DNA from: a virus
Direction: 5' to 3' (one strand)
Virus record (IMG/VR): IMGVR_UViG_3300032223_002658
Span: 1-64,000 of that record
Length of the DNA: 64,000 bases
Part shown: positions 19,347-60,665 of the stretch, piece after piece
How the letters are laid out: each line of letters opens with the position of its first letter
Position numbering within the stretch: position 1 is the stretch's first letter
The notes under the pieces: model-generated
Told to the model about the DNA's origin: nothing
What the model saw: the letters and a program-made list of their open reading frames with translations, nothing else
Databases searched by the model: none
Position numbers and translations under genes: made by a program

Positions 19347-19613
19347 ATGTCAATAGAAAAATTACTAAAAACACTGGCCGTTTCAATAAATCCAAGACAA
19401 GAAATGCGTGATTCAGAAGATATGCCAGTTAAAATGTGTTGGTGTTGCCAAATGCCAGCAAGCGCAACCGATCTTTTCTACTATGCTGATAATCAAAATA
19501 AATGTTATTTTGCTTTATCTGGAAAGCCAGTTCAAAAGAGATGCGAAGAATGTCATTATCTTGGAGATGATTGGAAGAAAAAAGGTCCAACTTACGTCAA
19601 TAAACAGATGTAA
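19347..19613 (+). CDS. Small Cys-rich protein with MSIEK leader
   Basis: MSIEKLLKTLAVS leader; CWCC and CEECH motifs. Confidence 0.6.
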   Translation: MSIEKLLKTLAVSINPRQEMRDSEDMPVKMCWCCQMPASATDLFYYADNQNKCYFALSGKPVQKRCEECHYLGDDWKKKGPTYVNKQM

Positions 19614-19617
19614 AATT

Positions 19618-20097
19618 TTAAGGTTGGCAACCAACAAACATTTTAATTATAATTTGCTTGCAGATTGATTCAACAACATAAGCCTCAGATACAGTTAAAC
19701 GGTGACCAGCCCAAAAACGCTGGTCACCTTTCTTTGAGCTAATTTCAAATGCAAAGCCATCATCTAATTTATACATTTTCATTATAACATTGCCAGATTT
19801 ATTTTGATGGAAGAAACCTTTTCCTTTTCCGCTTTCATCAGCAGCACCTAAGAACGCTTTTCTTCCAGAAAGAACGCAGGCTATTTCTGCAATTTCTTCT
19901 GTATCAAGCTTGACTGTTTCAGAATCTTCCTTCCAAGAAAAGCGATTATTGCCATCAGAATCTTTTGATGCTTCTTGCTTTGCTACAGTAAGAAAAAAGT
20001 TACATGTTTTTGCGTTCCACTCCCAAGATGAAGCACACCCCTTGGTGTGATCTTTCATATTTGGTTTATAAATTTTGTATGCTGGATTGTATGACAT
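19618..20097 (-). CDS. Whirly/PC4-like ssDNA-binding protein
   Basis: YKIYK...FFLTVAKQ...RFSWKE...VKLDTEEIAEI...FFHQ...RLTVSEAYV resembles the Whirly/MRP repeat; next to an SSAP gene. Confidence 0.5.
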   Translation of the reverse strand: MSYNPAYKIYKPNMKDHTKGCASSWEWNAKTCNFFLTVAKQEASKDSDGNNRFSWKEDSETVKLDTEEIAEIACVLSGRKAFLGAADESGKGKGFFHQNKSGNVIMKMYKLDDGFAFEISSKKGDQRFWAGHRLTVSEAYVVESICKQIIIKMFVGCQP

Positions 20098-20924
20098 TAG
20101 AAAATAACCTCACCTTTAATTTGCTCTGGAATAGATTGACCACCATTCTCAGTTCCTCGACTGAAACCATTTAGTATGTTTATTACTTCGTGTGATTGCT
20201 TATATGTAAGAGTATGCATACTCTCTGTTTGAATTCCACAGAACTTGATTAGCTTTGATTGATCAATTCCCATTCGATTACACATTGTATTAATTACAAT
20301 TTTTGCACTATCTGAAATCGGTCTATTTTCATCAATAACCATTGGATCAAGATCTTCTTTTGCTACTCCCTGATTTACTTCCTCAAGAGCGTAAACTCTA
20401 ACAAGACCAAGAGCCTTTCTCAATGCACGAGCCTCAGCTTTTGTTGATGCTGTAGCAACAGAAGCGTTGCAGTAAGGAAATGGTGTATTATCTGGATTTA
20501 CATCAAAAACATCAGACACATATTCATCTCTTGCAGAAATTACACCATGTCGCTTGAATTGAATGCTGCATCTAACTGTTGCTGTTCTATCTGACATTGT
20601 TGGAGACTTCAAAACATCGATGTCAACGGATACAATTCTTCCAATTAGTTTCTTAAAAATTCTTCGAAGACCATCGCATGTAGGCATTCCATCCTTGCAT
20701 TCCTTGTCAGTCAGTTGTGAAATGACATAATCAGACCATTCTGGATCTGTCTCATCTATTTTCTTTGATCCATCTGCTGATGTTATTTGAATAGCAGGAG
20801 ATACGCTTTCTGCTTCTGCTATCATTTGCTCAAGTGTTTCAATGTCAAGATCGGAAATGAGAACTGCGTCTTTACCAAGATCTACCAAACGTTTAACTAG
20901 TGATTTCTTGCTTTTGCGTGGCAT
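20097..20924 (-). CDS. Rad52/Sak-like single-strand annealing protein
   Basis: DGLRRI...ATVRCSI...ATASTKAEARALRKALGL signature; C-terminal ISDSAK...LTYKQSHEVI helical domain. Confidence 0.6.
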   Translation of the reverse strand: MPRKSKKSLVKRLVDLGKDAVLISDLDIETLEQMIAEAESVSPAIQITSADGSKKIDETDPEWSDYVISQLTDKECKDGMPTCDGLRRIFKKLIGRIVSVDIDVLKSPTMSDRTATVRCSIQFKRHGVISARDEYVSDVFDVNPDNTPFPYCNASVATASTKAEARALRKALGLVRVYALEEVNQGVAKEDLDPMVIDENRPISDSAKIVINTMCNRMGIDQSKLIKFCGIQTESMHTLTYKQSHEVINILNGFSRGTENGGQSIPEQIKGEVIF

Positions 20925-21439: not shown

Positions 21440-22117
21440 TTATCTCCTAAGCATCGCATGTTCTCTTGCGATATCGTTGTTGTGGGCAGTCAAAGTTTTA
21501 TTTTGCCCATGGTTGTAGTATTTGAAAAGAGGGGCTGGGATTCTCATGCACATAAAATTTGCAGCAGATATCCTAAGCCAATAATCGTAGTCTTCAATGA
21601 GTTTTATTGATTCGTTAAAAAGACCTATTTTGTTTACGACAGATCTCTTTATAAATGAATTAGTTGACACAATGCATTGACGCTTCAAAAGACGCTCATC
21701 AAAATCAGGTTTTGAGTTATACATTGTTTTATTTGAAAATACTTCAATATAATCAGAATAGACAAGACCAACCTCAGGAGCTATATCAAGATACTTGATG
21801 CTTATTTCGGCCTTTTGAACATGGTATTCGTCATCGGCATCAAGAAATCCAATATATTCACCTGAAGATTCAAGGATTCCAGCATTTCTAGCACTCGCAG
21901 TACCACCATTTTTCTTTTTAATAAGTCTGATATTTGAATCACCAAATTTATAAATTAATGATTGTGCCAAAAGTAATGAATTGTCTTTGCTGCCATCATC
22001 AACAATGATTATTTCAGTCTCGCTTTTATCGATGGTTTGTGCGACAGCACTAGAAACTGATCTTTCAAGAAAATGACCTTGATTGTAATTTGGTATTATT
22101 ATTGAGCATTTAATCAT
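21440..22117 (-). CDS. Glycosyltransferase family 2
   Basis: SIIIPNYN, IIIVDDGSKD, NGGTASARNAG, FLDADD, EDYDYWLR. Confidence 0.95.
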   Translation of the reverse strand: MIKCSIIIPNYNQGHFLERSVSSAVAQTIDKSETEIIIVDDGSKDNSLLLAQSLIYKFGDSNIRLIKKKNGGTASARNAGILESSGEYIGFLDADDEYHVQKAEISIKYLDIAPEVGLVYSDYIEVFSNKTMYNSKPDFDERLLKRQCIVSTNSFIKRSVVNKIGLFNESIKLIEDYDYWLRISAANFMCMRIPAPLFKYYNHGQNKTLTAHNNDIAREHAMLRR

Positions 22118-22644
22118 ACGAATGCAATTCTTTTTTGATCTGTATTGAACAACTCTTCCATCATTATATCCTCATAATCTGATATTTTAAATCCACCGTA
22201 TGGTGAAAATCCATCAATATCAGACCTGTGAATAATTTTATCGCTATTTATCTCAAATGACTTCATGATTTGTTCAACTTTATCTCCATTTGTATCACCA
22301 ATCCAAATAAAGTGTTTGTGATCTGAATCTTTGTACTGCATTTTTGGATTCTTCAAATACTCATTCCAAATTAAAAATATTGATGATTCTACACGCTCAA
22401 CAGTAGAAATCATCTTTATGCTTTCGTAGAAAGATGGAACAACTTTTATGAATCTTACGTTTTTATGTTCAGAGTATACTGATTCTTTACATTCAAGCTC
22501 ATCTCCAGATAAACCCATGTCAACAAACATATATTCATGATTGTCATTTATCTCTATGTTTTTTTTGCACTCAGCATTAAAAGTACCAAAATTCATTGGT
22601 CCATCTCTATGCTCTTTAAGCAAAATGCAAACAACACATTTCAT
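22114..22644 (-). CDS. Hypothetical protein, possibly degenerate GT-A fold
   Basis: Coupled ORF in the GT cluster; EYMFVDMG resembles GT2 'iivDdg'. Confidence 0.4.
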   Translation of the reverse strand: MKCVVCILLKEHRDGPMNFGTFNAECKKNIEINDNHEYMFVDMGLSGDELECKESVYSEHKNVRFIKVVPSFYESIKMISTVERVESSIFLIWNEYLKNPKMQYKDSDHKHFIWIGDTNGDKVEQIMKSFEINSDKIIHRSDIDGFSPYGGFKISDYEDIMMEELFNTDQKRIAFV

Positions 22645-23084
22645 TGTTTAACTGCCTCCATGTTCACGACCCATTGATATGGGCCATACCATGTTTTGGT
22701 AACAGAGAAGCCAGATGACTCAAGAGCGTCTTTCAATGATCCATGATCAAGGTATACATTGTATCCGCTGAATATATTGTTGAAAGTTGGCGTATCCATT
22801 ACTCCATAGGCAAGAGCATTGGATGCACCGACAACATCAACTATTTTTATTTTTAGAACACAGCCGCTATCAGAGAACTGCGCCCATGAATCTATGGTTT
22901 CTTTGACAGGAGCCTTGGTTTGCTCAAGTGCGCCAGGATGAGAAATTATTTCAGTTATCTTTTTTCCATTGATGCTTCTGATTACATAATCATCAACAAG
23001 CTGATCTGTTTTTACCCCGTTTCGTCTTTCTAAATTTATATATCCATCAAGATATGCTTCGCCATGATTAACATTTATTTTCAT
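22641..23084 (-). CDS. Degenerate class I SAM methyltransferase-like protein
   Basis: MKINVNHGEAYLDGYINLE...EIISH..LE...GCVLKI...LKDALESSGF...VNMEAVK follows the phage small-MTase layout but lacks the GxG motif. Confidence 0.5.
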   Translation of the reverse strand: MKINVNHGEAYLDGYINLERRNGVKTDQLVDDYVIRSINGKKITEIISHPGALEQTKAPVKETIDSWAQFSDSGCVLKIKIVDVVGASNALAYGVMDTPTFNNIFSGYNVYLDHGSLKDALESSGFSVTKTWYGPYQWVVNMEAVKQ

Positions 23085-24109
23085 AGTATTCCTTCAATTC
23101 TTTTGTTATATGCTTGTTCAAATATAGAATTCCAGCTATTTGCAAAATCCTCTATATTGTAGTTTTCAACTATTCTTTGTCTGCAGTTTGAACCAATATT
23201 ATGGGCGTATTCTTTATCATTGCATATACGCACTATTTGTTTAGCTAGATGCTCAAGATCATTTGAACATATTTCTGGATTATTAATTATTGATGGCACT
23301 TCTTGATTAGCGGTTGACACACATGGCGCACCACAAGACATCGCCTCCATTAAAGACATTGGAACTGGAGACAGCCTAGAAGTATTAAGATAACACGAAC
23401 AGTTATTTATTGCCTGTATTAAATGGGCTTCATTTGAAATAGGCTCGCTAACTCCCGGATTATCACCAATCAATGCAAATTTAATTGTTGGATCTATACT
23501 TTCAACAATAGATTTGACTTTAGTCCATTCTGTATATCCACAAAACTGATCTCTTTGAGCAAGAGCATTAACAATGTATAATACATATTTTGTCTTTCCG
23601 CTTTCAAATGCTCCAGTCCATCCCACAAAGTCATTTGTTCTTATTCCATGCTTAACAACTGTTGCATTTTCAATGCCCCATGATTTTTTGTTATGCTCTG
23701 TTATAAAAACGTTTATATCAGCTTTAAATGAAAGCATTGCTTCCATTGTTCTTTGATCCCAGTTTTTTAACTGTGGTTCAATGTGCTCCAAATGAACTAT
23801 TGGAAGTCTCAAGGCTTTGGCAATTTCTGTGGCAAATTGTATCTGACCAAATCTTTCTTGAGACAGTATGAAATCAATATCATATTCCGTATCAGATATT
23901 GCATTATACTCATATGTTCTTTGTGGAAGTGGCTTAAAACGCCGATCCCACTGTTTTGTTCCAGCCCCCCTGTTTATTAGAAAGAATTCGTGACTAGTTG
24001 CCAAGGCCAAATTTGTTTGGTATGCCTCATGCGTTGCAAAAGTAAGTATCTTATACTTTTTCTTTGGCGTTCTGTTAATTTTATTTGCTATTGTGATTAA
24101 TGGATTCAT
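23081..24109 (-). CDS. Glycosyltransferase family 4 (GT-B)
   Basis: YLNTSRLSPVPMSLMEAMSCGAPCVST. Confidence 0.9.
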   Translation of the reverse strand: MNPLITIANKINRTPKKKYKILTFATHEAYQTNLALATSHEFFLINRGAGTKQWDRRFKPLPQRTYEYNAISDTEYDIDFILSQERFGQIQFATEIAKALRLPIVHLEHIEPQLKNWDQRTMEAMLSFKADINVFITEHNKKSWGIENATVVKHGIRTNDFVGWTGAFESGKTKYVLYIVNALAQRDQFCGYTEWTKVKSIVESIDPTIKFALIGDNPGVSEPISNEAHLIQAINNCSCYLNTSRLSPVPMSLMEAMSCGAPCVSTANQEVPSIINNPEICSNDLEHLAKQIVRICNDKEYAHNIGSNCRQRIVENYNIEDFANSWNSIFEQAYNKRIEGIL

Positions 24110-25218
24110 TTTGATGACAAAGCCTCTACTAGTTTTGGACCAACAGCCTCATAGGAAAACTTGTTAACCATCTTTGTATAGTTTTCATTTGCGGTGTTTT
24201 TATATTCACCATTTGCTGCCCTACGCATTTTTTCCATCATTTCCCACAAAGATCCTTCCATCCACCATTCTTTATGGGAATAAAGTCCAGGGACAATTGC
24301 ATTTTTGGCCATTGCAAATACCGGTTTCTTGATCATAGATTTGACTGTTGGCTCATAATCCAAGTCAAACATCTTCGATATGCCATTCCAGTGAGTTGCT
24401 ATAACCGGCTTCTTGAATGCCGCTGCATCAAATGCTGGTATGCACTCGCCTTCTCCTCGTGAAGCAGTAACATAACAATCGAAGTTTTGATGCATCCCCA
24501 AGATCTCTCTTTCAGATAAAACGTCTGTCATTACGACTATCTTTGGATAATCTTTTTCAGATCTCTTGATTTCCGACTTTACAGATGATATCGCTTCTTT
24601 TATGAAATGCAAAGACTCTTCTGGATTTTTACCATCAACGTAAGTCTTGATTATAAGAGAAACGTTGTCTCTAGAAGAAAATTCAGACAAAAATGCTGTT
24701 ACGGTACTTGCAATATTCTTTCTGTATGAGTAGTCTGATATCGTATAAAATTTATATGTGTCTTTTATTTCATCTGGAATTGGAGGAGCTTCATATGATT
24801 GGTCGTACTTTGTGAAATCGCTTGGGCGTGTAACCTCTCTAAGAATCGATTTTACACCAGATTCTTGAGCTGCAGCAATTTGATCTTGCGTAGTCATCCA
24901 AACTTCATCCATCAAATTACATGAATACTGCCAACCAGAAGATCTGAACGAGCTGCTCTCCCAATAAAATAAACCAATATTTTTAACTCCAGCTATTCTG
25001 ACAAAACTGTTAGGAATTGTTTGTTGTATCACAACATCCACATTATCAAGATCGCATCTGACTTGAATGTCTTTGTCTATGACAACAGGTCTTGAATTAA
25101 GCGTGAACCATGTTGGAACAACATCAACTCCATATTTTGACATGCACTTTATGAAATCCCTTGCTGAATTTCCATATCCAGTGCCATCACGATAAACAGA
25201 TAAATATGCTACTTTCAT
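24106..25218 (-). CDS. Glycosyltransferase family 4 (GT-B)
   Basis: TGYGNSAR, YRKNI, DCYVTASRGEGECIPAFDAAAFKKPVIAT. Confidence 0.9.
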   Translation of the reverse strand: MKVAYLSVYRDGTGYGNSARDFIKCMSKYGVDVVPTWFTLNSRPVVIDKDIQVRCDLDNVDVVIQQTIPNSFVRIAGVKNIGLFYWESSSFRSSGWQYSCNLMDEVWMTTQDQIAAAQESGVKSILREVTRPSDFTKYDQSYEAPPIPDEIKDTYKFYTISDYSYRKNIASTVTAFLSEFSSRDNVSLIIKTYVDGKNPEESLHFIKEAISSVKSEIKRSEKDYPKIVVMTDVLSEREILGMHQNFDCYVTASRGEGECIPAFDAAAFKKPVIATHWNGISKMFDLDYEPTVKSMIKKPVFAMAKNAIVPGLYSHKEWWMEGSLWEMMEKMRRAANGEYKNTANENYTKMVNKFSYEAVGPKLVEALSSK

Positions 25219-26876
25219 ATTACCACCGTATTTCTGCTTTTTGTTTGCTGATGACCTTCAGTATTAACCATAAACCTGTGTTGCTCAAACATGTTTCTAT
25301 CATGTATCTCCTTTTGCATGATTTGATTGAGCTTATTTATATCTATGTCGTGATTTGACAAAGCACCATTTTTGTTCATTACATCGGCAATGTTTCCCAT
25401 CTGGAAAGATGTTTTTTGCATTGTTCCAGGCGTGAAATATTGAGAAGCAATTTTACATATTGTAGCCGCATCCATACAATCATCAGCTTGCAAATTGACA
25501 TATTGAGACATCTTTGGTGGCGCAAACCATCTGAATGGATTTTTTGTTTCAATTGAGTCAAATATCCTTGACCATTTTTCAGCAAATCCATCGCTTGAAT
25601 GAAAGTGTTCTGCTGTTTCTCTAGCCAATGAAGACAAGAACTCCTTCTTTTCCTTTGTTTCTTTTAGATATGATGTCATCATTTCAGACAGGTGACTATC
25701 GTCTGGTATTGCTCTTATTTGACTTGTCTCTCTTGTTGACTCCTGTCTCCATCCAGATATGCGGGTTTGTCCATATCCACCACCAAGTCTGGCAAGTTCA
25801 TATGGTGCGGCATAGTCAGTTGATATAACTGGAATGCCGCAAGCTTTCGCTTCTATAATTGGAATTTCAAGAGCGCCAGCAACGCTGTGCTGAATATAAA
25901 GATCTGCAATGTTGTATATTTTTGCAAGCTCTTCTCTTGTTGAGCCATTCGATGTATTTGCCATAGCGCAAGCTTTTTGCCCACACTTTTCACAATATTT
26001 TCTATCACCAGCGTAGAATCCTGGAGTTGATTTTTTGCAAACTTGGCAATAATATGTCACTATTACTCTTGATCCAACGCCATACCGTATTATTTCTTTT
26101 GGTATGTCAAATCCACAATCAGGATTTCCAGTGTGCAAATATAGATATGTCTTGTCAGCTATTTCATTGAGTCCCTGTTTGTATAGGGAATCTATGGTGT
26201 CTGAAAAAGCTTTTATTAGCCCAGGAAAAAGTTTTCTTGGCTGGTTACGCATTACAGTCATTATTATGTTTGCGTCTTCCGATATTCCATACTCAGCACG
26301 TATAGTTTTCTTGTCCATTACTTTGAATGTCTCAAGATCGACACCAGGCATTGTATTTAAAGAGCAAACATTAAGTTTTCCATTGCCATATTTGGACAAT
26401 ACGCTCAAGCCCCAGTCTGTATATGAGGTAAGAAGATCTACTGTTGAGAATGTTGATAGCCATTCATCTCTTGGTGGCTCAGAGTCAACACACACAGACC
26501 AAATATACGTGTAATAAGGTCTTGATGGAGACTTGGTTATAAATTCATCGTGCCAATAATCTCTGTATGAGAAAACTATATCGGGTTTGAATTCGTTTAC
26601 AGCAGCCTCAAATCGCAATGATCCAAACTGAGCTGTTTGATATTCTTGTTGAAATCTCTGCATTTCTGCAGAGCCTTGAGTAGGAACAACTGGAAAAACC
26701 TTCCACGGAAGTGTTTTTACTCTTGGATCATCGTCAGAAATATAAGACGCAAGCTCAGCGACCTCATACTTTCCAGATTTATGAAGTCTAGAAAGCAGAT
26801 CGTATGCCATAACAGAAAAGCCTGTGTTTAACAGGCTGAATTCACTCACTAACAGTATTCTTTTTTTATTGCTCAC
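25215..26876 (-). CDS. Glycosyltransferase family 4 with inserted Zn-ribbon
   Basis: TGFS, RNQPRK, ADLYIQHSVAGALEIPIIEAKACGIPVI; CQVC...CEKC insert; GTG at 26876 preferred (track start 26894). Confidence 0.9.
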   Translation of the reverse strand: MSNKKRILLVSEFSLLNTGFSVMAYDLLSRLHKSGKYEVAELASYISDDDPRVKTLPWKVFPVVPTQGSAEMQRFQQEYQTAQFGSLRFEAAVNEFKPDIVFSYRDYWHDEFITKSPSRPYYTYIWSVCVDSEPPRDEWLSTFSTVDLLTSYTDWGLSVLSKYGNGKLNVCSLNTMPGVDLETFKVMDKKTIRAEYGISEDANIIMTVMRNQPRKLFPGLIKAFSDTIDSLYKQGLNEIADKTYLYLHTGNPDCGFDIPKEIIRYGVGSRVIVTYYCQVCKKSTPGFYAGDRKYCEKCGQKACAMANTSNGSTREELAKIYNIADLYIQHSVAGALEIPIIEAKACGIPVISTDYAAPYELARLGGGYGQTRISGWRQESTRETSQIRAIPDDSHLSEMMTSYLKETKEKKEFLSSLARETAEHFHSSDGFAEKWSRIFDSIETKNPFRWFAPPKMSQYVNLQADDCMDAATICKIASQYFTPGTMQKTSFQMGNIADVMNKNGALSNHDIDINKLNQIMQKEIHDRNMFEQHRFMVNTEGHQQTKSRNTVVI

Positions 26877-27039
26877 CGGTTGTAAATCCTTCAAATTTTC
26901 CTAAATTTCGAGATGCTTTTGTTTTATTGTCCATCTCTTTTGCAATATCATCAGCCAAAGTATCAAGAAGGCCAGGGGCCTGTAATAAACCCCTGGCCTT
27001 CAAGATCTCAAGAACTTTTAAGATTTTAATTGATGACAT
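26866..27039 (-). CDS. Small 57-aa hypothetical protein (not in ORF track)
   Basis: ATG overlaps the ssb stop (TAATG); MSSIKILKVLEILKARGLLQAPGLLDTLADDIAKEMD...; fills the gap exactly. Confidence 0.5.
   Translation of the reverse strand: MSSIKILKVLEILKARGLLQAPGLLDTLADDIAKEMDNKTKASRNLGKFEGFTTGEQ
26968..27000 (-). terminator. 11-bp GC-rich hairpin, probable terminator/attenuator after ssb
   Basis: AAGGCCAGGGG / CCCCTGGCCTT perfect inverted repeat; weak U tract on the minus strand. Confidence 0.55.
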
Positions 27040-27521: not shown

Positions 27522-29057
27522 TCAATTTATTTCTATTAAAGATTCTACGCACCATCCACTTCCTGTCCCTTTAATTGTCAACTCATATTTACCATCCTTT
27601 CTTATCTTATTTTTATATTTAGCATAAGCGCTTGGAAACATAACCATTCTTATGCTTCCAGTCGCGTCAGCAATATTCAATTGACACATTTCTTGACCAG
27701 GGTTTTCGCCCTTTTTTGTGACAGTGAATTCAACATCAACCACGGATGCTATTACTCTTTTTGCAACACCTCTATTGTTTCTTAGCATCCTATAGCAGTC
27801 CTTACAAGTAAACTCAGTTATATCTTTGTAAGAATCAACGGCGCTGCAAGTCATAGATATTCCAAGAAGCTCCTGCTCATTTAATGCTTTCCAGTCAGAT
27901 GTATCTGTTGATTTTACATCGATGGCCTCGGCTTCAGATTTCACAATCTGCTTTCTTGGCTTTGTACTTACCATAACAGCACAGTCTAACATTGCTTTTT
28001 TAATTATATCAACAGAATTTCCGTCAGAAATATTTTCAATTATGTATTTTGTCTCTCTTACTGTGAGTTGATTCATTGCCGAAACAACATCAAGCATGCA
28101 TTTTCTTGAAAGCCCATAACAATCACATGCACCGCTCTTGATCAAAGACTCCACACCAAGAGATCGAATAGAATCGTTTTCTCTAAAAGAAAGTTTGATG
28201 AACTGAGAGAATGTTGAAGGACGCTCATTATTTATAATAGACCAATCCTTTTCGCCAAATTGTTTGATATGGCAAAGGCCATATATGATTGAGCTTTTAC
28301 CATCTTTATTTAAAATCTTGAAGTCTTTTGATGACTCAATGATTGAGGGTGGTATGATTGATATGCCGTTCATCTTTGCCTCATTAATCATATCATGAAG
28401 CTCTTCTCTTGGCTTTTGTCTAGCTTTAGAATATGTCAAATATGTGCAGTAAAATTCGTAAGGAAAGTTCGCTTTTAGATACGCTGTGCGATATGACCAA
28501 ACAGCATATTTTTTTGCATGAGCATCGTTGAAAGCATATCTTCCTGCGCTCTCAATCATGGAGAACAGCTTTTCAGCCAAATCTTTGTCTTTTCCATTTT
28601 TAATACATCCATTGACAAATTTTTCTCTCAGATCATTAATGACTTTATAGTCTTTTTTACCGATGCCTTTTCTTAGTTTGTCTACAATTACCAATCTATC
28701 AATATATGGAAAATCTCTCCAAGCTATTTCTCCACCAAATTTCATTAGCTGCTCTTGATAAATAAGAACACCCATAGTTGGATTCAAAATGCGATCAACA
28801 TCGTCATCGCCAAATTTATTCGGCGGTTCTTTTCCATTTTTTACTCTAGAATACATTTCAGTCATGCCTGATTCAAGACATGCTGGTCTAATTAAAGCAA
28901 GAACAGCACTAAGCTCATTTATGTTCTTTGGTTTAATCTTTGATGCCCACTGCTTTCCAAGCTCACTTTCAAGTTGAAAAACACCGCCAGTATTTCCAGA
29001 CTGTATGAGCTTCCACGTTTTTTCGTTTTTAAAATTAATTGCGTCTATGTCAAGCAT
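27522..29057 (-). CDS. dnaE: DNA polymerase III alpha, C-terminal half (fingers/HhH/OB)
   Basis: GVFQLES, ALIRP, GVLIYQEQLM, LRKGIGKK, YAFNDAHA, AYLKANFP, EQELLG, OB fold. Confidence 0.93.
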   Translation of the reverse strand: MLDIDAINFKNEKTWKLIQSGNTGGVFQLESELGKQWASKIKPKNINELSAVLALIRPACLESGMTEMYSRVKNGKEPPNKFGDDDVDRILNPTMGVLIYQEQLMKFGGEIAWRDFPYIDRLVIVDKLRKGIGKKDYKVINDLREKFVNGCIKNGKDKDLAEKLFSMIESAGRYAFNDAHAKKYAVWSYRTAYLKANFPYEFYCTYLTYSKARQKPREELHDMINEAKMNGISIIPPSIIESSKDFKILNKDGKSSIIYGLCHIKQFGEKDWSIINNERPSTFSQFIKLSFRENDSIRSLGVESLIKSGACDCYGLSRKCMLDVVSAMNQLTVRETKYIIENISDGNSVDIIKKAMLDCAVMVSTKPRKQIVKSEAEAIDVKSTDTSDWKALNEQELLGISMTCSAVDSYKDITEFTCKDCYRMLRNNRGVAKRVIASVVDVEFTVTKKGENPGQEMCQLNIADATGSIRMVMFPSAYAKYKNKIRKDGKYELTIKGTGSGWCVESLIEIN

Positions 29058-29722: not shown

Positions 29723-30349
29723 ATGGGTTCTAGCGATCAAGTCATAAAAAAACATTTAAACGCTGTAGCTAAACAGGTTGTTGGTCCTCCAACTAGAACT
29801 AGACCTGATGAACCAAATATGCCATTAGAAACAAGTCCAGGATCGTGGACAGATACAACACCATCATCGTGGCAATTTTCGATTCAAGATCTTTTGGCGG
29901 CTCTTTATAACGGAATAACATCTTTGAGACTGTATATTGAAAGATGGCTTGTTAGTCTCGGAATGTCAAGAAATGTTGCAAAAATAATAACTCTTAATTT
30001 AACACTAAGCGCAGAAACTATATTTCAGTTTGCTTACTGGGTTATAAGACCACAAACAACAAATCTGCCAAGAGAGTTATTTCTTAGTTTGCTGGGGTCA
30101 ATTTTGGATGCAATAAGTCCAACCGGACGTACTGGGATTGATGATGCCGCATGGGATACGTTTTATTATTTTGATCATAGAGGGGTATTTTTCTTTGGCG
30201 ATATTGTGGCAGCTATACAAAGAGGATGGACAATAAATCAAATAATAGAGTGGCTACAATTTTTGATCTCAAAGGGAAACGACTATTACTATAATTGGCC
30301 AGATACTCCAGAGCAAGCTCAAGAAGAAATGGATTTATACAAAGATTAA
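29723..30349 (+). CDS. Hypothetical helical protein with leader-like N-terminus
   Basis: VIKKHLNAVAKQ, Pro-rich linker, then Trp/Leu-rich amphipathic helices. Confidence 0.6.
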   Translation: MGSSDQVIKKHLNAVAKQVVGPPTRTRPDEPNMPLETSPGSWTDTTPSSWQFSIQDLLAALYNGITSLRLYIERWLVSLGMSRNVAKIITLNLTLSAETIFQFAYWVIRPQTTNLPRELFLSLLGSILDAISPTGRTGIDDAAWDTFYYFDHRGVFFFGDIVAAIQRGWTINQIIEWLQFLISKGNDYYYNWPDTPEQAQEEMDLYKD

Positions 30350-30752: not shown

Positions 30753-31427
30753 ATGTCTATAGAACAATCAATAAACAAATTGGTAAAAGCAGTAAATCAA
30801 ACAGTTTTAGACAAAAAAATAACTCCAGAACAATATTTTGATGTAATTGCTTCGCCTTCATGCAAAAAACTTCTTGGTAAAGATGGTGCTCCAATTAAAA
30901 ATCCGCCTATAAATGATATTTGTGATGCGCTAAATGACAATAATACATGGATTAATCCTAAAAAATGTCCAGCATTTAATCCAATTGGACATAAGTGCTC
31001 TCCATCAGAAGTATTTATGTCAGAAGAAAAAATTCCATCAAATGGAAAATTAATAACATCAAAAGATGTTGCCAGGGCATGTGAAAATTATGCAAATGCA
31101 CAAGTGGCCGCAATAGACACAAGAGGCATGAGCCAATCTCAGATACAAGAAATAAAATCTAAAGCAAAATGCTCGTGCTACGACTATTCATTATATAGTC
31201 AGGAAAATGGCAGCGCTTGGCCAAAGGGAATAAAAGAGGCTTTAACAAATCCTGCGCCAAATAGTTTTATACCAGCTATATATCCAGGGCATTTATCTAT
31301 TCAAACATTAGATGCGTATAAAAATAATTGTAGCGCTTCACAAATTCATGATCTATGTATTGAAAATTCAATAGTGGTTAGAGATTGGAATCGCGCTTGT
31401 GGATTAATTGCAGCGCCAGAAAATTAA
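30753..31427 (+). CDS. Cys-rich protein with MSIEQ leader
   Basis: Start at ATG 30753 after AGGTAAAA (MSIEQSINKLVKAV); many spaced Cys. Confidence 0.65.
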   Translation: MSIEQSINKLVKAVNQTVLDKKITPEQYFDVIASPSCKKLLGKDGAPIKNPPINDICDALNDNNTWINPKKCPAFNPIGHKCSPSEVFMSEEKIPSNGKLITSKDVARACENYANAQVAAIDTRGMSQSQIQEIKSKAKCSCYDYSLYSQENGSAWPKGIKEALTNPAPNSFIPAIYPGHLSIQTLDAYKNNCSASQIHDLCIENSIVVRDWNRACGLIAAPEN

Positions 31428-35366: not shown

Positions 35367-35732
35367 ATGGCAGGATTATTCGATATCTTCAAAAACAAAC
35401 TAAACCTTGCGGTTGCTCAAGGTACGATGGAAGATACACAAAAAAACATCGATAATCAGGAGCCTACAACTCCAGAGGAAGATTTATCAGACGGTATGAG
35501 TGAAGGTGTGAATGATGAAACCAGTTATAGTGGAATAGAACCAGGCGATATGGTTCAAAACACAAATACTGAATGTATGCATCATGGTAGCGAGGGGGTA
35601 GTTTTGAAAGTAGAATCACTACCAAATAACACAGGATACGTCATCCATTATCAAGTAACAAACAGTGGCCCAACTTATTCTCCGGGCGACATTTTAACAA
35701 AAACTGAAGATCAATTAGGTAAAATATCATGA
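35367..35732 (+). CDS. Small SH3/KOW-like barrel protein with leader and acidic linker
   Basis: IEPGDMVQN...HHGSEGVVLKV...YQVTN. Confidence 0.55.
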   Translation: MAGLFDIFKNKLNLAVAQGTMEDTQKNIDNQEPTTPEEDLSDGMSEGVNDETSYSGIEPGDMVQNTNTECMHHGSEGVVLKVESLPNNTGYVIHYQVTNSGPTYSPGDILTKTEDQLGKIS

Positions 35733-37150: not shown

Positions 37151-37154
37151 TTTA

Positions 37155-39478: not shown

Positions 39479-39488
39479 TATATACACT

Positions 39489-53138: not shown

Positions 53139-54134
53139 TTAGCTGTTTTGTGAATACACTTGACCATAAAGATTATTAATCTTGTCTGCATAAATTTCTG
53201 TTGAGTGTTGCTTGTATTTTAAATAGTTCACATTACCAATCTGTTGACGCTCTTCTTTGCTGAGGCTCTGCATTTTTTTTGTTAAATCAACTAGGCCATC
53301 TAGATCATCACAAAGCCATTCATCAGAATCAAAGAGTTCTGGAATTGCGGAGTCCTTATATGAAATTACAGGTTTTTTATTTGCAAAAGCCTCTAGAATT
53401 GAAAAACAAAAAGCTTCATTAGAACTTGGATAGTGGTAGACATCTATCTCATTCATTATTTGCTGTCTTTCATCATCTGTAACAGAACCTTTGATTGTTA
53501 TGTTGTCATTGCCGAAGTACTTGCGATAGGCATTCATTGCTTTAAAATAAGCAGGATCAAGGATTTCTCCAGCAACAATAAATTTGTTTTCTCTGCATTC
53601 GTTCGCACAATACAAAGTGTCGTGAATCATTTTTGATGGACAATAACTAGCTATTCTACCAAACACTGGTATGTCTTTTTGTGCTGATTCAATTTCATTG
53701 CACTCAACTCCATATCTTACAATTTCGTAATTGGAGACATGTGGATTCAAATCAACTTGATATTTTGAACTAAATAAAACTTTATCAAATTGTGTTGTAT
53801 CAAAGCCAATCGTTTGTCCACATAGAACGCTTGCGAACCGCTTGCACTTTGGTAAATAATTAAAGTACCCAAGTCGTTGTTCTCCAGGTATAAAAACATG
53901 TATGACATCTGGATTAAACTTATTTACAAGATCAATAAGATGCATATCGTATTCAAAGTTTTGCGCCCGCACTAAATGCGACTCACCAATACTTGAAAAC
54001 TTTTCTCTAAAAGGACCATCAACAGAGCCATAAAAAGACATCTCGTTTTGAGGACTAAGCTTTTTGGCAAGCTCATAAGCGGCTAGAGATGAACCACCTT
54101 GGTTGTAAAAATTGTTAATGAACGCTATTCGCAT
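53139..54134 (-). CDS. Glycosyltransferase family 4
   Basis: QGGS, DVYHYPSSNEAFCFSILEAFANKKPVI. Confidence 0.9.
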   Translation of the reverse strand: MRIAFINNFYNQGGSSLAAYELAKKLSPQNEMSFYGSVDGPFREKFSSIGESHLVRAQNFEYDMHLIDLVNKFNPDVIHVFIPGEQRLGYFNYLPKCKRFASVLCGQTIGFDTTQFDKVLFSSKYQVDLNPHVSNYEIVRYGVECNEIESAQKDIPVFGRIASYCPSKMIHDTLYCANECRENKFIVAGEILDPAYFKAMNAYRKYFGNDNITIKGSVTDDERQQIMNEIDVYHYPSSNEAFCFSILEAFANKKPVISYKDSAIPELFDSDEWLCDDLDGLVDLTKKMQSLSKEERQQIGNVNYLKYKQHSTEIYADKINNLYGQVYSQNS

Positions 54135-54842: not shown

Positions 54843-54881
54843 TAAAGAATAAAAAGTGTATTTTTAAAAGAAAGTTTTAAA

Positions 54882-55291: not shown

Positions 55292-55768
55292 TTATAATTT
55301 AAAATATTCTATGGGTTTGAGCGCTGTTTGCTCAAGCCCATATGTTTTTCCATAACCAAGGTCAATTAGATTTTCATCTCTAATTAAATCATCTGCAGAA
55401 CACCAGCCAACTATGTTGTAATTTGGTTTTTGTCCAATAATTAATACGTAAACATCAGATGGATTTTCGTTCTTTGACCATCTTGCTAGCAGCTTGCCGG
55501 TTTTGTATTTCGTGGTTTTGATATCAATTTTATCACCATTCATTATTACATCATCTCCACCTTTTCGTGGGCTAATTGACATGTCTGGATATAAATTCAT
55601 GGCTTTGCAAAAAGCAAACTCACCACATATTCCCTCTAAGTCTGTTTCCTCACATGATTGAGGTCCAATTTTTTTATCAGAAACGCCCCCATTTCTATTG
55701 GAGGCGTATCTATTTTTAGCAATCCATTCACATATTTTTATTTCAGATTGATCAAGTGTTACGTTCAT
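55292..55768 (-). CDS. PD-(D/E)xK nuclease-like protein
   Basis: GICGEFAF...GDD...IDIKTT...DVYVL...IVGW. Confidence 0.65.
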   Translation of the reverse strand: MNVTLDQSEIKICEWIAKNRYASNRNGGVSDKKIGPQSCEETDLEGICGEFAFCKAMNLYPDMSISPRKGGDDVIMNGDKIDIKTTKYKTGKLLARWSKNENPSDVYVLIIGQKPNYNIVGWCSADDLIRDENLIDLGYGKTYGLEQTALKPIEYFKL

Positions 55769-56945
55769 AAGGATCTAATTTTAGTATTACCATATTTGGG
55801 CGAGCAGCAATGATCTTTGGATTTCTATAATTTGCAAATTTTACAAAATCAAAAACAGCAACGCTTATATCACCCCAATTAGCATCATCAATAGCAACAA
55901 CAAGACTGTGCTTTATGGTAGATGTGTTGATTAAATCTTGAATTGTGGTAAAATAACTATGCCCACCATCCACAAAAATGAAAGCCGTTTTAGTTTCTTG
56001 TGAATTTATATTAGCTGCCACAGCAGGCATTGACCTTGAAGAATCACCAACAACAATAGCGCAGTCAAATTCATCACCAAAATTTTCCTGTATTCTTGAT
56101 ATTGCCAACTCAGCATTAATTGGAACATCGTTTGGAGGAAGTTCTTCATCTGGCGCCTTTGCAAAAAGATCTAAAAGATATGCTTTTATTGGAAGATGTT
56201 CTTTGAAAAGACCAACTGATGTTTGGCATTTGAATGCGCCAATTTCAACATAATAATCTGGTTTTATTTTCTTATATACATCACATAGAAAATCAAACTT
56301 TACTCCAAGTGTTTTTCTTGGTGAGTCGTCTGTTAGATTTTCTGAATCATATTTTGTATTTACAAACAGAACATCTTTTTGAACTACAGTTCCTTGAAAT
56401 ACATTGTCTTTAATAAATGTGTGTGGCACAAAACCTATACTGTGAAGTTTTTCAATAATTTCATTTGATGAAGCAGCTCCAGCGTTGTACTCTGTAACTG
56501 GAAGTTCAATCAAAAGCCATTTGGTTCTTTTTAGTGTTTCTATACCGCCATTGATTATTGCGCACTCTGAACCTTGAGTATCAATTTTAATTAGATCAAA
56601 ATACTGAGATCCAGTGATGCTGTCAAGAGTTACAGTTGGAACATTTATGACATCAAAATTTCCATCTTTATAATACTCTGTGGTTTCTTTATAAAAAGAT
56701 GCTCCTTGACAAGTTGGCTCATTTTTATTTATATAGAAATTTTTTGACTCTGTATTGTCTCCAAGAGCTAATATTTTATATGTAGCGCCACATTCAATTA
56801 GTGCTTTTTCACACTTGGGATTTGCCTCTATAGATAGAATAGCTGCCTTTTGATTTAATTTTTTATATTCAACAAATGTTTGACCTATGTTTGCACCTAT
56901 GTCAATAATTACACTCGACTCTTTTACAATATCTTCTAAAATCAT
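55752..56945 (-). CDS. FkbM-family methyltransferase fused to a second class I methyltransferase
   Basis: IDIGANIG, IEAN, IKIDTQGSE; second domain VEIG...GDS...FVDGGHSY...IDD. Confidence 0.88.
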   Translation of the reverse strand: MILEDIVKESSVIIDIGANIGQTFVEYKKLNQKAAILSIEANPKCEKALIECGATYKILALGDNTESKNFYINKNEPTCQGASFYKETTEYYKDGNFDVINVPTVTLDSITGSQYFDLIKIDTQGSECAIINGGIETLKRTKWLLIELPVTEYNAGAASSNEIIEKLHSIGFVPHTFIKDNVFQGTVVQKDVLFVNTKYDSENLTDDSPRKTLGVKFDFLCDVYKKIKPDYYVEIGAFKCQTSVGLFKEHLPIKAYLLDLFAKAPDEELPPNDVPINAELAISRIQENFGDEFDCAIVVGDSSRSMPAVAANINSQETKTAFIFVDGGHSYFTTIQDLINTSTIKHSLVVAIDDANWGDISVAVFDFVKFANYRNPKIIAARPNMVILKLDPYERNT

Positions 56946-57841
56946 ATGTTTCCTTTTATTGACTTAATTGCTGCAACCAAAGCATTATATGAGTTAATGC
57001 TGTGGATTGGATTTGATAAATCAGATATACCAAATGAGCAAGCACCAACATTTTCATTTACTATAAGTCTGCAGCCACACATTGCCGCTTCAACAACTGT
57101 TCTAGCTGATGCCTCTTTCCAGTTTGGCATATGCACAAAATACTTAGATGAATTCATTGCAAACGCAACTTGATCTGGAGTTGCAACGCCAAGATAGTTA
57201 TCTGCATTAATAAGATCTATATTTCCACGACCAATAAATTTTACATTATCGCCAAATATATTTTGTATTTCAACAACACCTTTAGCTTCAGTGATAGCTC
57301 CAACATAAAGAACATTTATTGGGCGCTCAAGATTGGCATTATTGAATATCTCGTTATTTATTTTTTGAAAATATATGAATGATCTTGGTATTTCAAATTT
57401 TGCAAATTTGTTCCATTCACTCAAGTGAAGTGGACTTAAAAATATATTGAATGCAGCTCCAGCCATCATCGTAGCTGTTATAGTTATTAAAGGATTATCT
57501 TCGTATCTTTCCTTTGCATCAATATTCCATCCACCATATTCATGTGGCGTTGCTCCAGTATAAGCGCACTCAGCAACTATATATGGTTTTCTAGAATCAA
57601 TAAATCTTCTCTGTTGTCCAATATCAAACCACTTTGAGCCATTTGGATCATTGAAGACGTCAAAATAAACATTAAGATCAGAATCATCTGGATCAATAAA
57701 AACATCAGTCGGTGTTATTACATTAACATAATATCCTGCGGCTTTTAAAGCCTCAATAACATCTTGACCTGTTGTATGACCACCACTCAAAAATGAATCA
57801 TTTGAAAGCGGACTGACTATTGTATAGTAATTTGCTATCAC
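56942..57841 (-). CDS. Glycosyltransferase family 4-like
   Basis: LYVGAITEAKG, FVHMPNWKEASARTVVEAAMCGC. Confidence 0.85.
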   Translation of the reverse strand: MIANYYTIVSPLSNDSFLSGGHTTGQDVIEALKAAGYYVNVITPTDVFIDPDDSDLNVYFDVFNDPNGSKWFDIGQQRRFIDSRKPYIVAECAYTGATPHEYGGWNIDAKERYEDNPLITITATMMAGAAFNIFLSPLHLSEWNKFAKFEIPRSFIYFQKINNEIFNNANLERPINVLYVGAITEAKGVVEIQNIFGDNVKFIGRGNIDLINADNYLGVATPDQVAFAMNSSKYFVHMPNWKEASARTVVEAAMCGCRLIVNENVGACSFGISDLSNPIHSINSYNALVAAIKSIKGNI

Positions 57842-57863: not shown

Positions 57864-58841
57864 TTATTTACCACAAGAGTCTTGTGCTTGTTTAATTTTT
57901 TCTTTTGCGCAGGAAACAAGTATTGAAGCAAGCCATTCATCAGAACTTGACATTATTATTCCACCAGATGATAGGATCATACATGGTCTCTTTGAGTCTT
58001 GAGAATTAGCCCACTCTAATAAACACTGCTCCATTGCTGCTGCAAGCTTTACCTTTGCTATTGATGGACTACCAAAGCCAAGAGCGCCACAAATTTCGCT
58101 GAACAAGTTTGATGCATTAGCATTAGCTATATTAGCTATTCTTACTTTTATATATTCTGGCACATATTTAGCAATGAACTTTTGATTATCTATAGCTCTT
58201 TCAATTATATCTGTTGCTATTTTAGGATCTACTATAGTTGGGTCTGTTAAAACACTTGGTGGCTTTGGAAGTCTTGATATCATGTTTTTTAATCTTACAG
58301 CTATTTGTACTCTTTCAGTTAAAGTGTTTCCACCATCCCTAGCCTTATTGCAATCATAAATATACAAACCAAATTTATTTGAGCTTTTATCAACAAATGG
58401 ATCGTTTGCTGAGAAAATTTTATTATGCTCTTCTCTGTAAGAGACGAAATCATCATTTTGATTTAGTTCTTTCAACCATTCGTTTAAATATTCATCTATG
58501 AATGAACCAATTTTTGAATCCGATAAATTTAGTCCACCACAATAGGGGTTGTTTTGTGAAAAATCTGTTATGCCTTTTTGTATCTTTTCTCTTATTGGGC
58601 CTTCTCTTAATGCTTTAGTGCTTGTTGGTATCTTTGAATTTAAATATGTGCAATACTCACATATTTTTTGTTGTATAATAGATAATGATCCTTGCATGCA
58701 TGGCTGCATGTCTATGGGTAATGTTTCAACTGGAACTTGATTACCACCAAATCCACCACCAGTATCATGAATAGTTGTTCCTGGAGATAGTTTAACACCA
58801 AGAACAAATCTAAGTTTTTTTAATTTATCTGTATACTTCAA
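57864..58841 (-). CDS. Hypothetical Cys-containing helical protein with basic leader
   Basis: MKYTDKLKKLRFVLG; spaced Cys; last gene of the operon starting at 62060. Confidence 0.6.
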   Translation of the reverse strand: MKYTDKLKKLRFVLGVKLSPGTTIHDTGGGFGGNQVPVETLPIDMQPCMQGSLSIIQQKICEYCTYLNSKIPTSTKALREGPIREKIQKGITDFSQNNPYCGGLNLSDSKIGSFIDEYLNEWLKELNQNDDFVSYREEHNKIFSANDPFVDKSSNKFGLYIYDCNKARDGGNTLTERVQIAVRLKNMISRLPKPPSVLTDPTIVDPKIATDIIERAIDNQKFIAKYVPEYIKVRIANIANANASNLFSEICGALGFGSPSIAKVKLAAAMEQCLLEWANSQDSKRPCMILSSGGIIMSSSDEWLASILVSCAKEKIKQAQDSCGK

Positions 58842-60309
58842 ATGAGCACCCCTGATTTTGTACCCAGTCTACATTGCATCCTCTAGAAACTAGATCTTCC
58901 ATTATTTTTACTATTTGTGCTGGTTCTTTTGGCATTGGGTGATCGCTTCCTCCCCAGCCACCAGTATTCATATTGTAAAATACCATACAATTCCAGCATT
59001 TACCATTTGATGGTTGATATCCACCATTTGTATTTGCTCTAGCCATAATAACATAAGTTCCATAGCATGGATCTTGTGGGCTTAAATAATTTCTGCTAAG
59101 AATTGGACCTGTGCATGGACCACCATTTTTTGGAATACCTGTAAGTTTTTCACACGCAACTTTAGGGTTGTATGCTGTCTTAAGCCAAGATGGTTCATTA
59201 GCTGCATCTGGAACGTCACCATTTGAATTAACGTGATCAAATGCTTTATTGATATTTTCACAGAAGCTATTTTCACATTCAACATTTCCAGGGTATTCAT
59301 CGCTTTTTATAACAGGTTTTGTAAAAATGGCGTAATCTTGATCATTTTTACATATTTGTCTAGCTAAGCACGCAAGAGCAAGTCGTCTCTCTGTTCCTGC
59401 TATTCCAGCATCATATGGTCCTTGTCTTTCAAGAGCTGTTCCATTACAAATATTTGACTCAAAACAGTCTGGAAAATGCGCCTTGATCCACTCTATGAAT
59501 TTTGGATTCATGATGGTATTTCGTTCAGAATACCCTCTCCATATACCGCCATCATATGGAGGACCTTTCATTCCAGGAATTACGTGACCATTTGGGCATG
59601 GAGTATCATACCCATAGTCACTATCATTAGAATGTGGGCATGGTACAAGATTTCGTGTGTCAGCATATATTGTTATGAATGGATATGGAATATCAGTTGG
59701 CTCTCCAAGTTTTCCTTGAACAAGAGTTCCACATATATATATACCTTCCCATGGCATTGGTTTTCCAGTAACTGGATCATTGACCGCAAATTGTGGATAT
59801 TTTTTTGCGATCATTTTTTCGTTCATTCTATCGGAATATGGTCTTAATTTATCTTTAAGAGATGGATGCCAACCAAGGTATGGATCACCACATGTATTTC
59901 CACCACCAACAGAAAAAGTTCCACCATTTGGATCTCTTTCAACCCAAGGCCATGGTTGTGGAAATCGTAAACAAGATTTATCATCAGATGCTGTAGTCTT
60001 TATTTCCTTTTCAGATGGCGTATTTTCTATACGATCATATTTAGAAACGAAAACATCTGGCTGTTCCACGCATTTTGAAGTTGCACCAATAACCCCACCG
60101 ATTGCTGAGCAATATTCAGTTGCCATTGCTTCCATGCATTGACCAGGAATTATTGGTTTACCATCAGATCCTTTGAAAGGCATTATGGTGCATGATTTAA
60201 AATCAAGTGGAGAAAAACTGCCGCCTTGATAAGCGACAGTTTTTAGATCAAATGATTTGGATAATTTATCTCGTAAGATGCGTTCTAGCTTTGAAATTTG
60301 ATTGGACAT
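58825..60309 (-). CDS. Large Cys/Pro/Gly-rich protein with amphipathic leader
   Basis: MSNQISKLERILRDKLSK; many Cys; extracellular-like composition without a signal peptide. Confidence 0.6.
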   Translation of the reverse strand: MSNQISKLERILRDKLSKSFDLKTVAYQGGSFSPLDFKSCTIMPFKGSDGKPIIPGQCMEAMATEYCSAIGGVIGATSKCVEQPDVFVSKYDRIENTPSEKEIKTTASDDKSCLRFPQPWPWVERDPNGGTFSVGGGNTCGDPYLGWHPSLKDKLRPYSDRMNEKMIAKKYPQFAVNDPVTGKPMPWEGIYICGTLVQGKLGEPTDIPYPFITIYADTRNLVPCPHSNDSDYGYDTPCPNGHVIPGMKGPPYDGGIWRGYSERNTIMNPKFIEWIKAHFPDCFESNICNGTALERQGPYDAGIAGTERRLALACLARQICKNDQDYAIFTKPVIKSDEYPGNVECENSFCENINKAFDHVNSNGDVPDAANEPSWLKTAYNPKVACEKLTGIPKNGGPCTGPILSRNYLSPQDPCYGTYVIMARANTNGGYQPSNGKCWNCMVFYNMNTGGWGGSDHPMPKEPAQIVKIMEDLVSRGCNVDWVQNQGCSFEVYR

Positions 60310-60317
60310 AAATCATT

Positions 60318-60665
60318 TTATTGTGCTGGCGGTGTTGCGCTCATTTCTTGTGATGGAGCAGCTGTTTCTGTTGTCTGATTTGCAGCTGTTCCACAATTAT
60401 CTCCACCAATTTGACCACATGTTTTATTTGCATAAAAAGTGCCACCTTGACTTTCACAAGCATCTTTCATAAGATTATCAAGACATTGGTTTGAACCAAA
60501 ACCGCCACCGGGAAGACAGCATGCGCCAACGTTGTCCGGAGGACAATCACCAGGAGTACCCTCGCAGTCTGTTATATCTTTAACAGCCCATTTTACCTTT
60601 GGTTGTGTTTGTGGTGATACAGCCTGTTCAAGAGCCAAAATTAAGTTTTTTAGTGTTTTTGACAT
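60318..60665 (-). CDS. GACC-motif Cys-rich protein with leader
   Basis: MSKTLKNLILALEQAVS; GACCLPGG...C...ACESQGGTFYANKTC. Confidence 0.7.
   Translation of the reverse strand: MSKTLKNLILALEQAVSPQTQPKVKWAVKDITDCEGTPGDCPPDNVGACCLPGGGFGSNQCLDNLMKDACESQGGTFYANKTCGQIGGDNCGTAANQTTETAAPSQEMSATPPAQ

Follow-up and report, generated by a model that had tools for sequence, protein, structure and literature searches.

Proteins with unrelated bodies begin with variants of one short peptide, MSIEK and its continuation, in the viral DNA analysed here (the window: the first 64,000 nucleotides of the linear, 87,471 bp IMG/VR record IMGVR_UViG_3300032223_002658; G+C 37%, CheckV completeness 56%). This MSIEK start is the local form of a portable N-terminal module that occurs throughout the phage lineage to which the window belongs. 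That the leader is a real, selected and portable unit we regard as very probable. As to its role, we tentatively propose, by analogy with known phages, that it may be a virion address by which accessory proteins are loaded in or on the particle.

Megablast and tblastn found no close relative of this phage among deposited phage genomes, and a DnaE half matched deposited phages only at 30% identity or less; the lineage is known from metagenomes only and is without a cultured relative. Related loci were collected in two sets, the first comprising 18 loci (54-84% identity) found with the C-terminal half of DnaE, the second 41 more found via the untagged protein encoded at 54170, the closest 15 of which belong to the same lineage. 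Whole records were fetched for four relatives: G001 (125,471 bp, with terminal repeats, 100% complete), G002 (121,997 bp), G005 (90,574 bp) and G004 (46,695 bp), the last being the window's closest relative. Gene calls were our own, and gene order is kept across the relatives. The window contains three gene blocks: a plus-strand tail block that includes an 1838 aa tape-measure protein and a fibre protein, a replication block, and a minus-strand block that we read by eye as sugar-transfer genes.

The leader in the window and its relatives

A first-pass annotation, made from the letters and translations of the window alone, had drawn attention to four open reading frames (ORFs) up to 35 kb apart that start with near-identical DNA. 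Exact copies of the string ATGTCAATAGAAAAAT are indeed present at 19347, 30358 and 54774, and the copy at 30753 has 2 mismatches; these are 4 matches where 0.35 are expected, a number reached by none of 100 shuffles, and the remainder of the 87,471-bp contig adds none. The four encoded peptides, with MSIE(K/Q) starts, also read as that annotation gave them. The exact identity of the DNA is due largely to the shared peptide together with codon preference: TCA, ATA, GAA and AAA make up 36, 45, 72 and 66% of their codon families, the product being a probability of 0.077 that a given MSIEK gene carries the exact 15-nt string. In addition, 22 of the 134 called proteins begin with MS. Both figures favour an explanation by chance, codon bias or a translation-start optimum, under which AT-rich first codons spell similar peptides.

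Starting from eight seed N-termini of G001, we grew a 13-column matrix, which converged on 25 N-termini of G001, G002 and G005; it was trained on relatives only, with the window's contig held out. Its columns read [LAS]-I-x-K-[LH]-x-x-[AV]-hydrophobic-[GA]-[QA]-[QA]-[PA], and the lineage-wide consensus is M-S-[IL]-E-[KQN]-x-I-x-K-[LH]-x-x-[AV]-hydrophobic-[GA]-[QA]. A six-frame scan of the window's contig returns 9 matches of at least 11 bits, and four of the five best are placed immediately after the ATG of the ORFs at 29723, 30753, 54774 and 54882. Among called genes of the same contig, scores of at least 10 bits occur at 5 of 1440 N-terminal versus 5 of 21413 internal positions (Fisher p 1.9e-4). 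The profile scan of the genome and its relatives proposed in the first-pass annotation yields N-terminal enrichment, with bodies that differ between relatives, and the N-termini of replication genes, where an equally frequent motif would have spoken against the idea, are free of it (best score -0.1 bits, n=20). The best score in tail-block genes is -1.1 bits (n=14). Lineage specificity is likewise apparent: 15 of 258 ORFs reach 12 bits in the relatives' loci L045-L059 (of which L052, L055 and L059 belong to G003, G001 and G002), against 0 of 290 ORFs in unrelated phage loci L061-L085, whose G+C content, sampled in 7 of these 25 loci, is 34-50%. Chance or codon bias is contradicted by these held-out and control scans as well as by the shuffles, and the motif continues for at least 13 residues past MSIEK, with other codons in the relatives; we consider this explanation extremely improbable. 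Iterated over all sources, the matrix lists 63 ORFs.

The ORFs of the window that carry the leader or were candidates for it, the promoter-like motif discussed below, and two features of the relatives are as follows.

19347..19613 (+): tagged ORF of 88 aa with 6 Cys, starting MSIEKLLKTLAVS; held-out score 4.9, reached by 5 of 290 controls
29723..30349 (+): tagged ORF of 208 aa without Cys; leader VIKKHLNAVAKQV, Pro-rich spacer, Trp-rich body; 20.1 bits
30358..30741 (+): tagged ORF of 127 aa with 8 Cys, starting MSIEKSIAKFISKL; 8.3 bits, above all 290 controls
30753..31427 (+): tagged ORF of 224 aa with 10 Cys, starting MSIEQSINKLVKAV; 16.7 bits; orthologs in 7 relatives
35367..35732 (+): tagged ORF of 121 aa, directly behind GTGTAT at 35352; 7.7 bits
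54774..54842 (+): leader-only mini-ORF of 22 aa without Cys, MSIEKLIEAMVSKFDYLIDRVV; 14.1 bits
54882..55277 (+): tagged ORF of 131 aa with 6 Cys, behind GTGTAT at 54856; 12.9 bits; orthologs in L045, L046 and L056
57864..58841 (-): probable tagged ORF of 325 aa with 10 Cys, sharing its GTGTAT-headed unit with 60318; 6.3 bits, a score that none of the 290 controls attains
58825..60309 (-): ORF of 494 aa with 22 Cys, in the unit of 60318; leader-like start MSNQISKLERIL; -2.2 bits
60318..60665 (-): tagged ORF of 115 aa with 8 Cys and a six-Cys GACC module; 10.5 bits
29709..29714 (+): GTGTAT promoter-like motif heading the 29723-30358-30753 unit
19103, 35352, 54147, 54856 (+) and 62087, 38982, 32073 (-): further GTGTAT copies
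G002 6381-8388: tandem array of five tagged genes, with GTGTAT just upstream in 4 of the 5
G001 42520-43368 and G002 8459-9304: tagged T4-type lysozyme, found in these two genomes only

Of the twelve leaders that had been proposed, the core four hold up at 30358, 30753 and 54774, all above the 290 controls, while 19347 is borderline; an ortholog of the latter in L005 keeps the leader at an overall identity of 44%. Of the eight looser ones, those starting at 29723, 35367, 54882, 58841 and 60665 score above all 290 controls, whereas those at 37150, 38015 and 60309 (-2.2 to 0.9 bits) are unsupported, so that the matrix gives no support to the 58825..60309 protein as a tagged one. Orthologs of 35367 score 16-21 bits, and its C-terminal domain is kept in 11 loci. 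The 29723 gene is the first behind the GTGTAT at 29709, and its protein has only 6 homologs in 5.8e9 proteins; the gene at the position of 30358 is missing in the closest relative, L005.

The 22-aa ORF at 54774 ends in TAA TAA and is followed by the GTGTAT at 54856 and then by ORF 54882 in the same frame. The idea that the two are one stop-broken gene was rejected because of the two TAA codons and the promoter motif between them, and is also contradicted by relative L045, where the 54882 homolog begins at its own ATG. For the mini-ORF as the deletion remnant of a full gene, local DNA alignment gave chance-level matches only.

Judged from composition, the leader would be a cationic, Cys-free helix, some 15-18 residues long, that leads into a Pro-rich spacer. 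K+R account for 20% of its residues and D+E for 6%; half are hydrophobic, in an alternating pattern, with 1% Pro and 0% Cys. The 25 aa that follow contain 12.4% Pro versus 4% genome-wide, and 26% Pro/Ser/Thr versus 21% in the remainder of the protein. As the first-pass annotation had stated, the leaders have no Sec-type hydrophobic core; by eye, no core of at least ~10 residues of the Sec, lipoprotein or Tat kind is present. No residue after the helix is fixed, and the Pro-rich spacer stands in place of a fixed cleavage motif. A Gly-Gly, Gly-Ala or Gly-Ser site is not found at the leader end, Gly being one of several residues at matrix column 9, and the matrix columns show no consistent match to Prp/L27-type or adenain-type cleavage motifs, for which no dedicated test was made.

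In the G002 array each gene starts MSLEKSIQKLTQVIQAA[KQ] or a close variant, with a near-identical leader of 17-18 aa, and the bodies (89-154 aa, 4-8 Cys) differ from gene to gene. Four of these genes differ by 2-7 synonymous versus 0-3 non-synonymous changes over the first 17 codons, and at 15-17 positions over the next 17, similarity ending after about codon 18. Because synonymous changes accumulate inside the leader while similarity stops after it, the leader is conserved at the protein level; selection acts on the peptide, not on the RNA. Conservation is also strict within families: I8, K10, H11, N13, A14 and A16 are invariant in 11 aligned sequences of the 29723 family, as are M1, E4, K9 and 10 Cys in the 30753 family (alignment A2).

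Exchangeable bodies, variable slots and the GTGTAT motif

With the first 28 aa removed, 64 tagged proteins fall into 26 families without a BLASTP link at E<1e-3. Small, even-Cys modules form the majority; the other body types are a T4-type lysozyme, the Cys-free 29723 family and a Met/Gln-rich acidic family. The first-pass description of unrelated, Cys-rich bodies survives in part for the window. The four core bodies lack BLASTP similarity to one another, but 60318 shares its GACC module with proteins of the relatives; Cys-rich cargo follows the leader at 19347, 30358 and 30753, but the leader at 54774 heads the 22-aa ORF, which has no Cys.

Recognisable domains are few. Pfam and PHROGs identify one body family, the lysozyme, in the 43 tagged proteins scanned. 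Among ten candidate window proteins, PHROGs match 0 of 10 and Pfam gives one weak DUF5824 match, on the untagged 54170, while NCBIfam searches with 10 Cys-rich proteins returned two insignificant matches only. The 57864..58841 protein has no Pfam or PHROG match, and 58825..60309 has none in Pfam, PHROG or NCBIfam; the protein atlas gave no usable lead for the latter or for 30753. Profiles of the 30753 and 29723 families had no significant match in the PDB, and the 30753 protein as query in viral contigs found no relative.

The lysozyme body is the best characterised. Searched against the PDB with phmmer, it matches T4 lysozyme (E 1.4e-8), residues 53-99 and 168-230 aligning to 7-52 and 95-157, segments which we take to hold the catalytic residues. 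Its PHROG matches are endolysin, internal virion lysozyme and baseplate hub lysozyme. The gene is not in the window's contig and probably lies in the missing part of this phage's genome.

Among the Cys-rich bodies, Cys numbers are even in 34 of the 35 tagged proteins that contain at least 4. A six-Cys GACC module of ~45 aa is common to 60318 and 15 proteins of relatives (alignment A4; BLASTP of 60318 against this family E 6e-15 to 4e-6). Only 33 proteins among 1.84 billion representatives match the family profile, and a leader of the type seen here (MSIEK..., MSLEN..., MKSIEE...) opens 13 of the 16 distant GACC proteins fetched. In P0037 and P0040, which belong to one cluster, the N-terminus is instead Sec-like and hydrophobic, followed by a Pro/Thr/Ser linker and tandem Cys modules; since these two carry the module behind a Sec-like start, it is of a kind used outside the cytoplasm. 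Both are non-phage-looking proteins; they come from NCBI-sourced contigs of 20 and 63 kb and have at least 6 tandem copies of two alternating, GACC-related six-Cys modules. The large tagged Cys-rich proteins of L046-L059 (A4) have, after GACC, a conserved C-terminal helix of the KEAMDMVMSLLKRK type, so that a helix stands at both ends; the window's 60318 is without the C-terminal one.

Comparison of relatives reveals a few hypervariable slots: even close relatives differ there in how many genes they have and which bodies these encode, yet the tag is retained. One slot follows the 19121 gene, which weakly matches a PHROG family labelled hemolysin; nearly every relative has its own tagged protein there, and some have two. 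Behind 54170, one to three tagged Cys-rich genes (123-492 aa) are found in the 15 close relatives, where the locus reaches that far; in the window this slot holds the 22-aa leader-only ORF and then 54882. At the position of 60318, G001 carries a Cys-free, Met/Gln-rich protein with the same kind of tag (G001 119422-119805). Body replacement in these three slots supports the first-pass idea of a swappable tag on diverse bodies exchanged between relatives.

The leader might instead be no more than the best-conserved end of one fast-evolving paralog family, left by tandem duplication and without an addressing role. Tandem arrays are present (G002), Cys frameworks are conserved, and some bodies are mosaically related (those of G002 7094, 7632 and 7927, and those with the GACC module). 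This view, which we judge very unlikely, has to accommodate 26 BLASTP-unlinked bodies, among them a T4-type lysozyme fold and Cys-free families, a finding that also speaks against the ordinary-paralog alternative raised in the first-pass annotation. It must further explain why similarity ends abruptly after the leader, with synonymous changes inside it, and why the tag is kept where a slot's body is replaced.

The tagged genes are also associated with a short upstream motif, GTGTAT. It is not over-represented in the contig, with 16 and 18 copies per strand versus ~29 expected from composition, but for 18 of the 34 copies an ORF start follows at a distance of 5-29 nt. A copy within 45 nt upstream is found for 15 of 33 tagged genes, the figure for other genes being 68 of 481 (p 3.6e-5, the orthologs not being independent). 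The earlier claim that all the proposed leaders lie in GTGTAT-headed units agrees with the arrangement of the ORFs, 12 of 12 being downstream of a same-strand copy with no opposite-strand gene between; for several of them operon membership is an assumption, since the motif lies 1 to 4 genes upstream. In the complete G001, GTGTAT heads portal, head-module, major tail, tape-measure and fibre genes, which makes a late-promoter reading, and hence late expression of the GTGTAT units, a reasonable inference from sequence. Seven tagged or tag-like genes lie at 38.4-43.4 kb in G001, just upstream of the packaging and head genes. Downstream of one copy of the motif, at 39487 (-), no ORF starts within the 82 nt that precede 39405.

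Possible destinations and neighbouring genes

The module, its specificity and conservation, the swapping of its cargo and its association with the promoter motif are observations; docking, partner, location and any cleavage we infer. In the mechanism we propose, all tagged accessory proteins would be docked through the helix onto one partner that they have in common and that is produced late in infection; conservation of Ile, Lys, Leu/His and Ala/Val in the leader suggests that this partner is a single protein. The leading candidate for that partner would be a virion component, with the tagged proteins mounted in or on the particle, because the promoter motif is common with structural genes, because tagged genes adjoin packaging and head genes in G001, and because there are experimental precedents, as far as the accounts cited below describe them, in T4 and P1.

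A virion address must be tempered by several observations. The main tail, tape-measure and fibre proteins are untagged, so the tag is not a general virion mark. No head protease or scaffold was recognised in the head module of G001, and therefore T4-style cleavage, like the cut after Ala considered in the first-pass annotation, is without support; the five genomes gave no S78, S77 or ClpP match, a result qualified by an S77 control that gave no signal anywhere and by the limited reach of Pfam, which misses the majority of this lineage's proteins. The tagged lysozyme scores 21 bits against Pfam PF00959, below the curated cut-off of 22.3, and it may be an ordinary endolysin that need not be in the virion, because it is the only muralytic gene found in the complete G001 (PF00959, Amidase_2, SLT, Peptidase_M15_4 and Amidase_3 searched). 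The p-values for Cys parity and promoter association are overstated because orthologs are not independent, and the list of 63 ORFs includes evident false positives at internal Met (e.g. window 3315 and 43674). Pro-rich spacers and secreted-type Cys modules, finally, fit an envelope or extracellular destination equally well.

Such a destination defines an alternative in which the helix is an envelope-directed signal, either a membrane-binding one or a non-Sec tag for release or export; late in infection it would take the lysozyme and the disulfide-type proteins to the periplasm or inner membrane, and not into the particle. In its favour, the leader combines positive charge with amphipathic character, the one lysozyme detected is among the cargo, and even Cys numbers in 34 of 35 proteins suggest disulfides, which need an oxidising compartment; a homologous Cys module stands behind a Sec-like N-terminus and Pro/Thr linker in P0037 and P0040, and a spanin-like pair in G001, identified by eye, suggests a two-membrane host. 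We nevertheless consider an envelope signal unlikely. The tag has no hydrophobic core, conservation at particular residues (I, K, L/H, A/V) is more in keeping with a protein partner than with lipid, and the best-conserved copy is on the Cys-free, apparently soluble 29723 family. The five genomes contain no C39 peptidase and only sub-threshold ABC P-loop matches, although an exporter could be encoded by the host. The spanin-like pair lies at L025:11462-12192 (G001 51462-52192), with another at L060:4898-5544; its first protein has an N-terminal hydrophobic helix, and its second is small with a lipoprotein-like signal ending in Cys. If this reading by eye is right, a host with an outer membrane would follow.

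A further alternative, modelled on leader-guided peptide maturation, is that a modifying enzyme recognises the helix, so that, for example, numerous sugar-transfer enzymes of the phage could glycosylate the Pro/Ser/Thr spacer. The enrichment of these residues in the spacer relative to the rest of the protein (26 versus 21%) is in its favour, as is the position of the cassettes, which adjoin a FkbM methyltransferase (E 2.5e-19), weak GT1 and weak sulfotransferase matches, and the 21440-26894 block of glycosyltransferases read by eye. We think a modification handle quite unlikely, given that matrix-supported bodies reach ~330 aa, far above leader-guided peptides, that the 43 tagged proteins scanned contain no recognition-element or maturation-protease domain, and that the sugar enzymes could serve DNA or host-surface modification.

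The transferase content of the window is heavy in its own right (21440-26894 (-), 34680-35330 (+), 53139-54134 (-) and 55752-57841 (-)), several of the products being glycosyltransferase-like by eye; with transferases adjoining cassettes that have Pro/Ser/Thr-rich spacers, glycosylation of tagged proteins is possible. Convergent with 30753 is a GTGTAT-headed gene (31424-32059 (-)), kept in 13 loci, for a 211 aa protein with HExxH at residue 74 and a weak match to DUF6782 (putative metallopeptidase). From these sequence features it is a candidate processing enzyme; its own leader-like N-terminus scores -2.4.

Other features of the window lie outside the tagged cassettes. Three consecutive genes behind one GTGTAT (36353-38968 (-)) encode proteins of 265-318 aa with long C-terminal Gly/Ala/Ile-rich hydrophobic stretches; the matrix does not support these Gly/Ala-rich membrane proteins as tagged, and a relative's counterpart has weak holin and tape-measure PHROG matches in the hydrophobic part. 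DNA polymerase III alpha is split into two genes, 27522-29057 (-) and 39489-41375 (-), ~10 kb apart; both DnaE halves are kept in relatives and are close together in more distant ones (e.g. L017 and L021). The tail block contains two paralog pairs, 17818-18462 / 18462-19124 (36% identity, E 2e-34) and 2490-3533 / 3870-4550 (27% identity, E 4e-7).

Significance and comparison with known systems

If the tag is a virion address, this uncultured lineage carries a ready-made, swappable cargo system that can be listed from sequence (~10-17 genes per genome and at least 26 body types). A defined peptide of 15-18 residues would then be available as a loading or display handle, and a role would be assigned to many ORFan Cys-rich phage proteins. 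A more specific version, rather unlikely in our estimation, has the helix as a universal, dockerin-like plug for one socket on the particle, with rapidly exchangeable, disulfide-stabilised binding or enzymatic modules on long Pro-rich tethers, on or in the virion, and the promoter-plus-leader cassette as the unit of exchange between genomes. Were it correct, a tailed phage would possess a natural modular system for both display and delivery, distinct from T4-style cleaved internal proteins.

To our knowledge, experimental evidence for address tags by which accessory proteins are loaded or mounted comes from very few phages (T4 and P1). We found no description of this leader or lineage in a literature search that was not exhaustive.

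Outside phages proper, contractile injection systems (PVC, Afp) are described as loading diverse payloads into a phage-tail-like particle by means of N-terminal tags (PMC11495950; bioRxiv 10.1101/2023.11.13.566157). They differ in their AAA ATPase (Pvc15) and contractile tube, neither of which was identified here, and in their longer tags. The encapsulation peptides of microcompartments, as outlined in one account, combine an amphipathic helix and a flexible linker on unrelated cargo (PMC12339742), a design that the present leader resembles by composition. Shell and biology differ, and the analogy is one of design and not of membership; the general Pfam results included no shell proteins that we noticed, no search having been aimed at them.

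Phage P1 provides a precedent in DarB, of which ~30 N-terminal residues are reported to suffice to direct a foreign protein into the capsid (PMC9024508). In that account the signal is described for a single protein, whereas here a family-wide tag occurs on dozens of bodies. The closest known system in function, likened here on sequence grounds only, is that of the T-even internal proteins, in which, according to one account, a short N-terminal capsid targeting sequence is common to diverse, fast-changing proteins encoded at hypervariable loci (PMC3012670). Like it, the present tag is a short N-terminal peptide on otherwise unrelated proteins at variable loci, and the GTGTAT motif is common with structural genes. 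A T4-type scaffolding core or gp21-type protease was not detected in the genomes searched, and a Pro-rich spacer follows the tag. The cargo also differs, consisting mostly of disulfide-type modules plus lysozyme, as opposed to the small basic anti-restriction proteins of T4; if the tag is indeed an address, lysozyme and secreted-type Cys modules suggest action on the host envelope and not, as for the classical anti-restriction cargo, in the cytoplasm.

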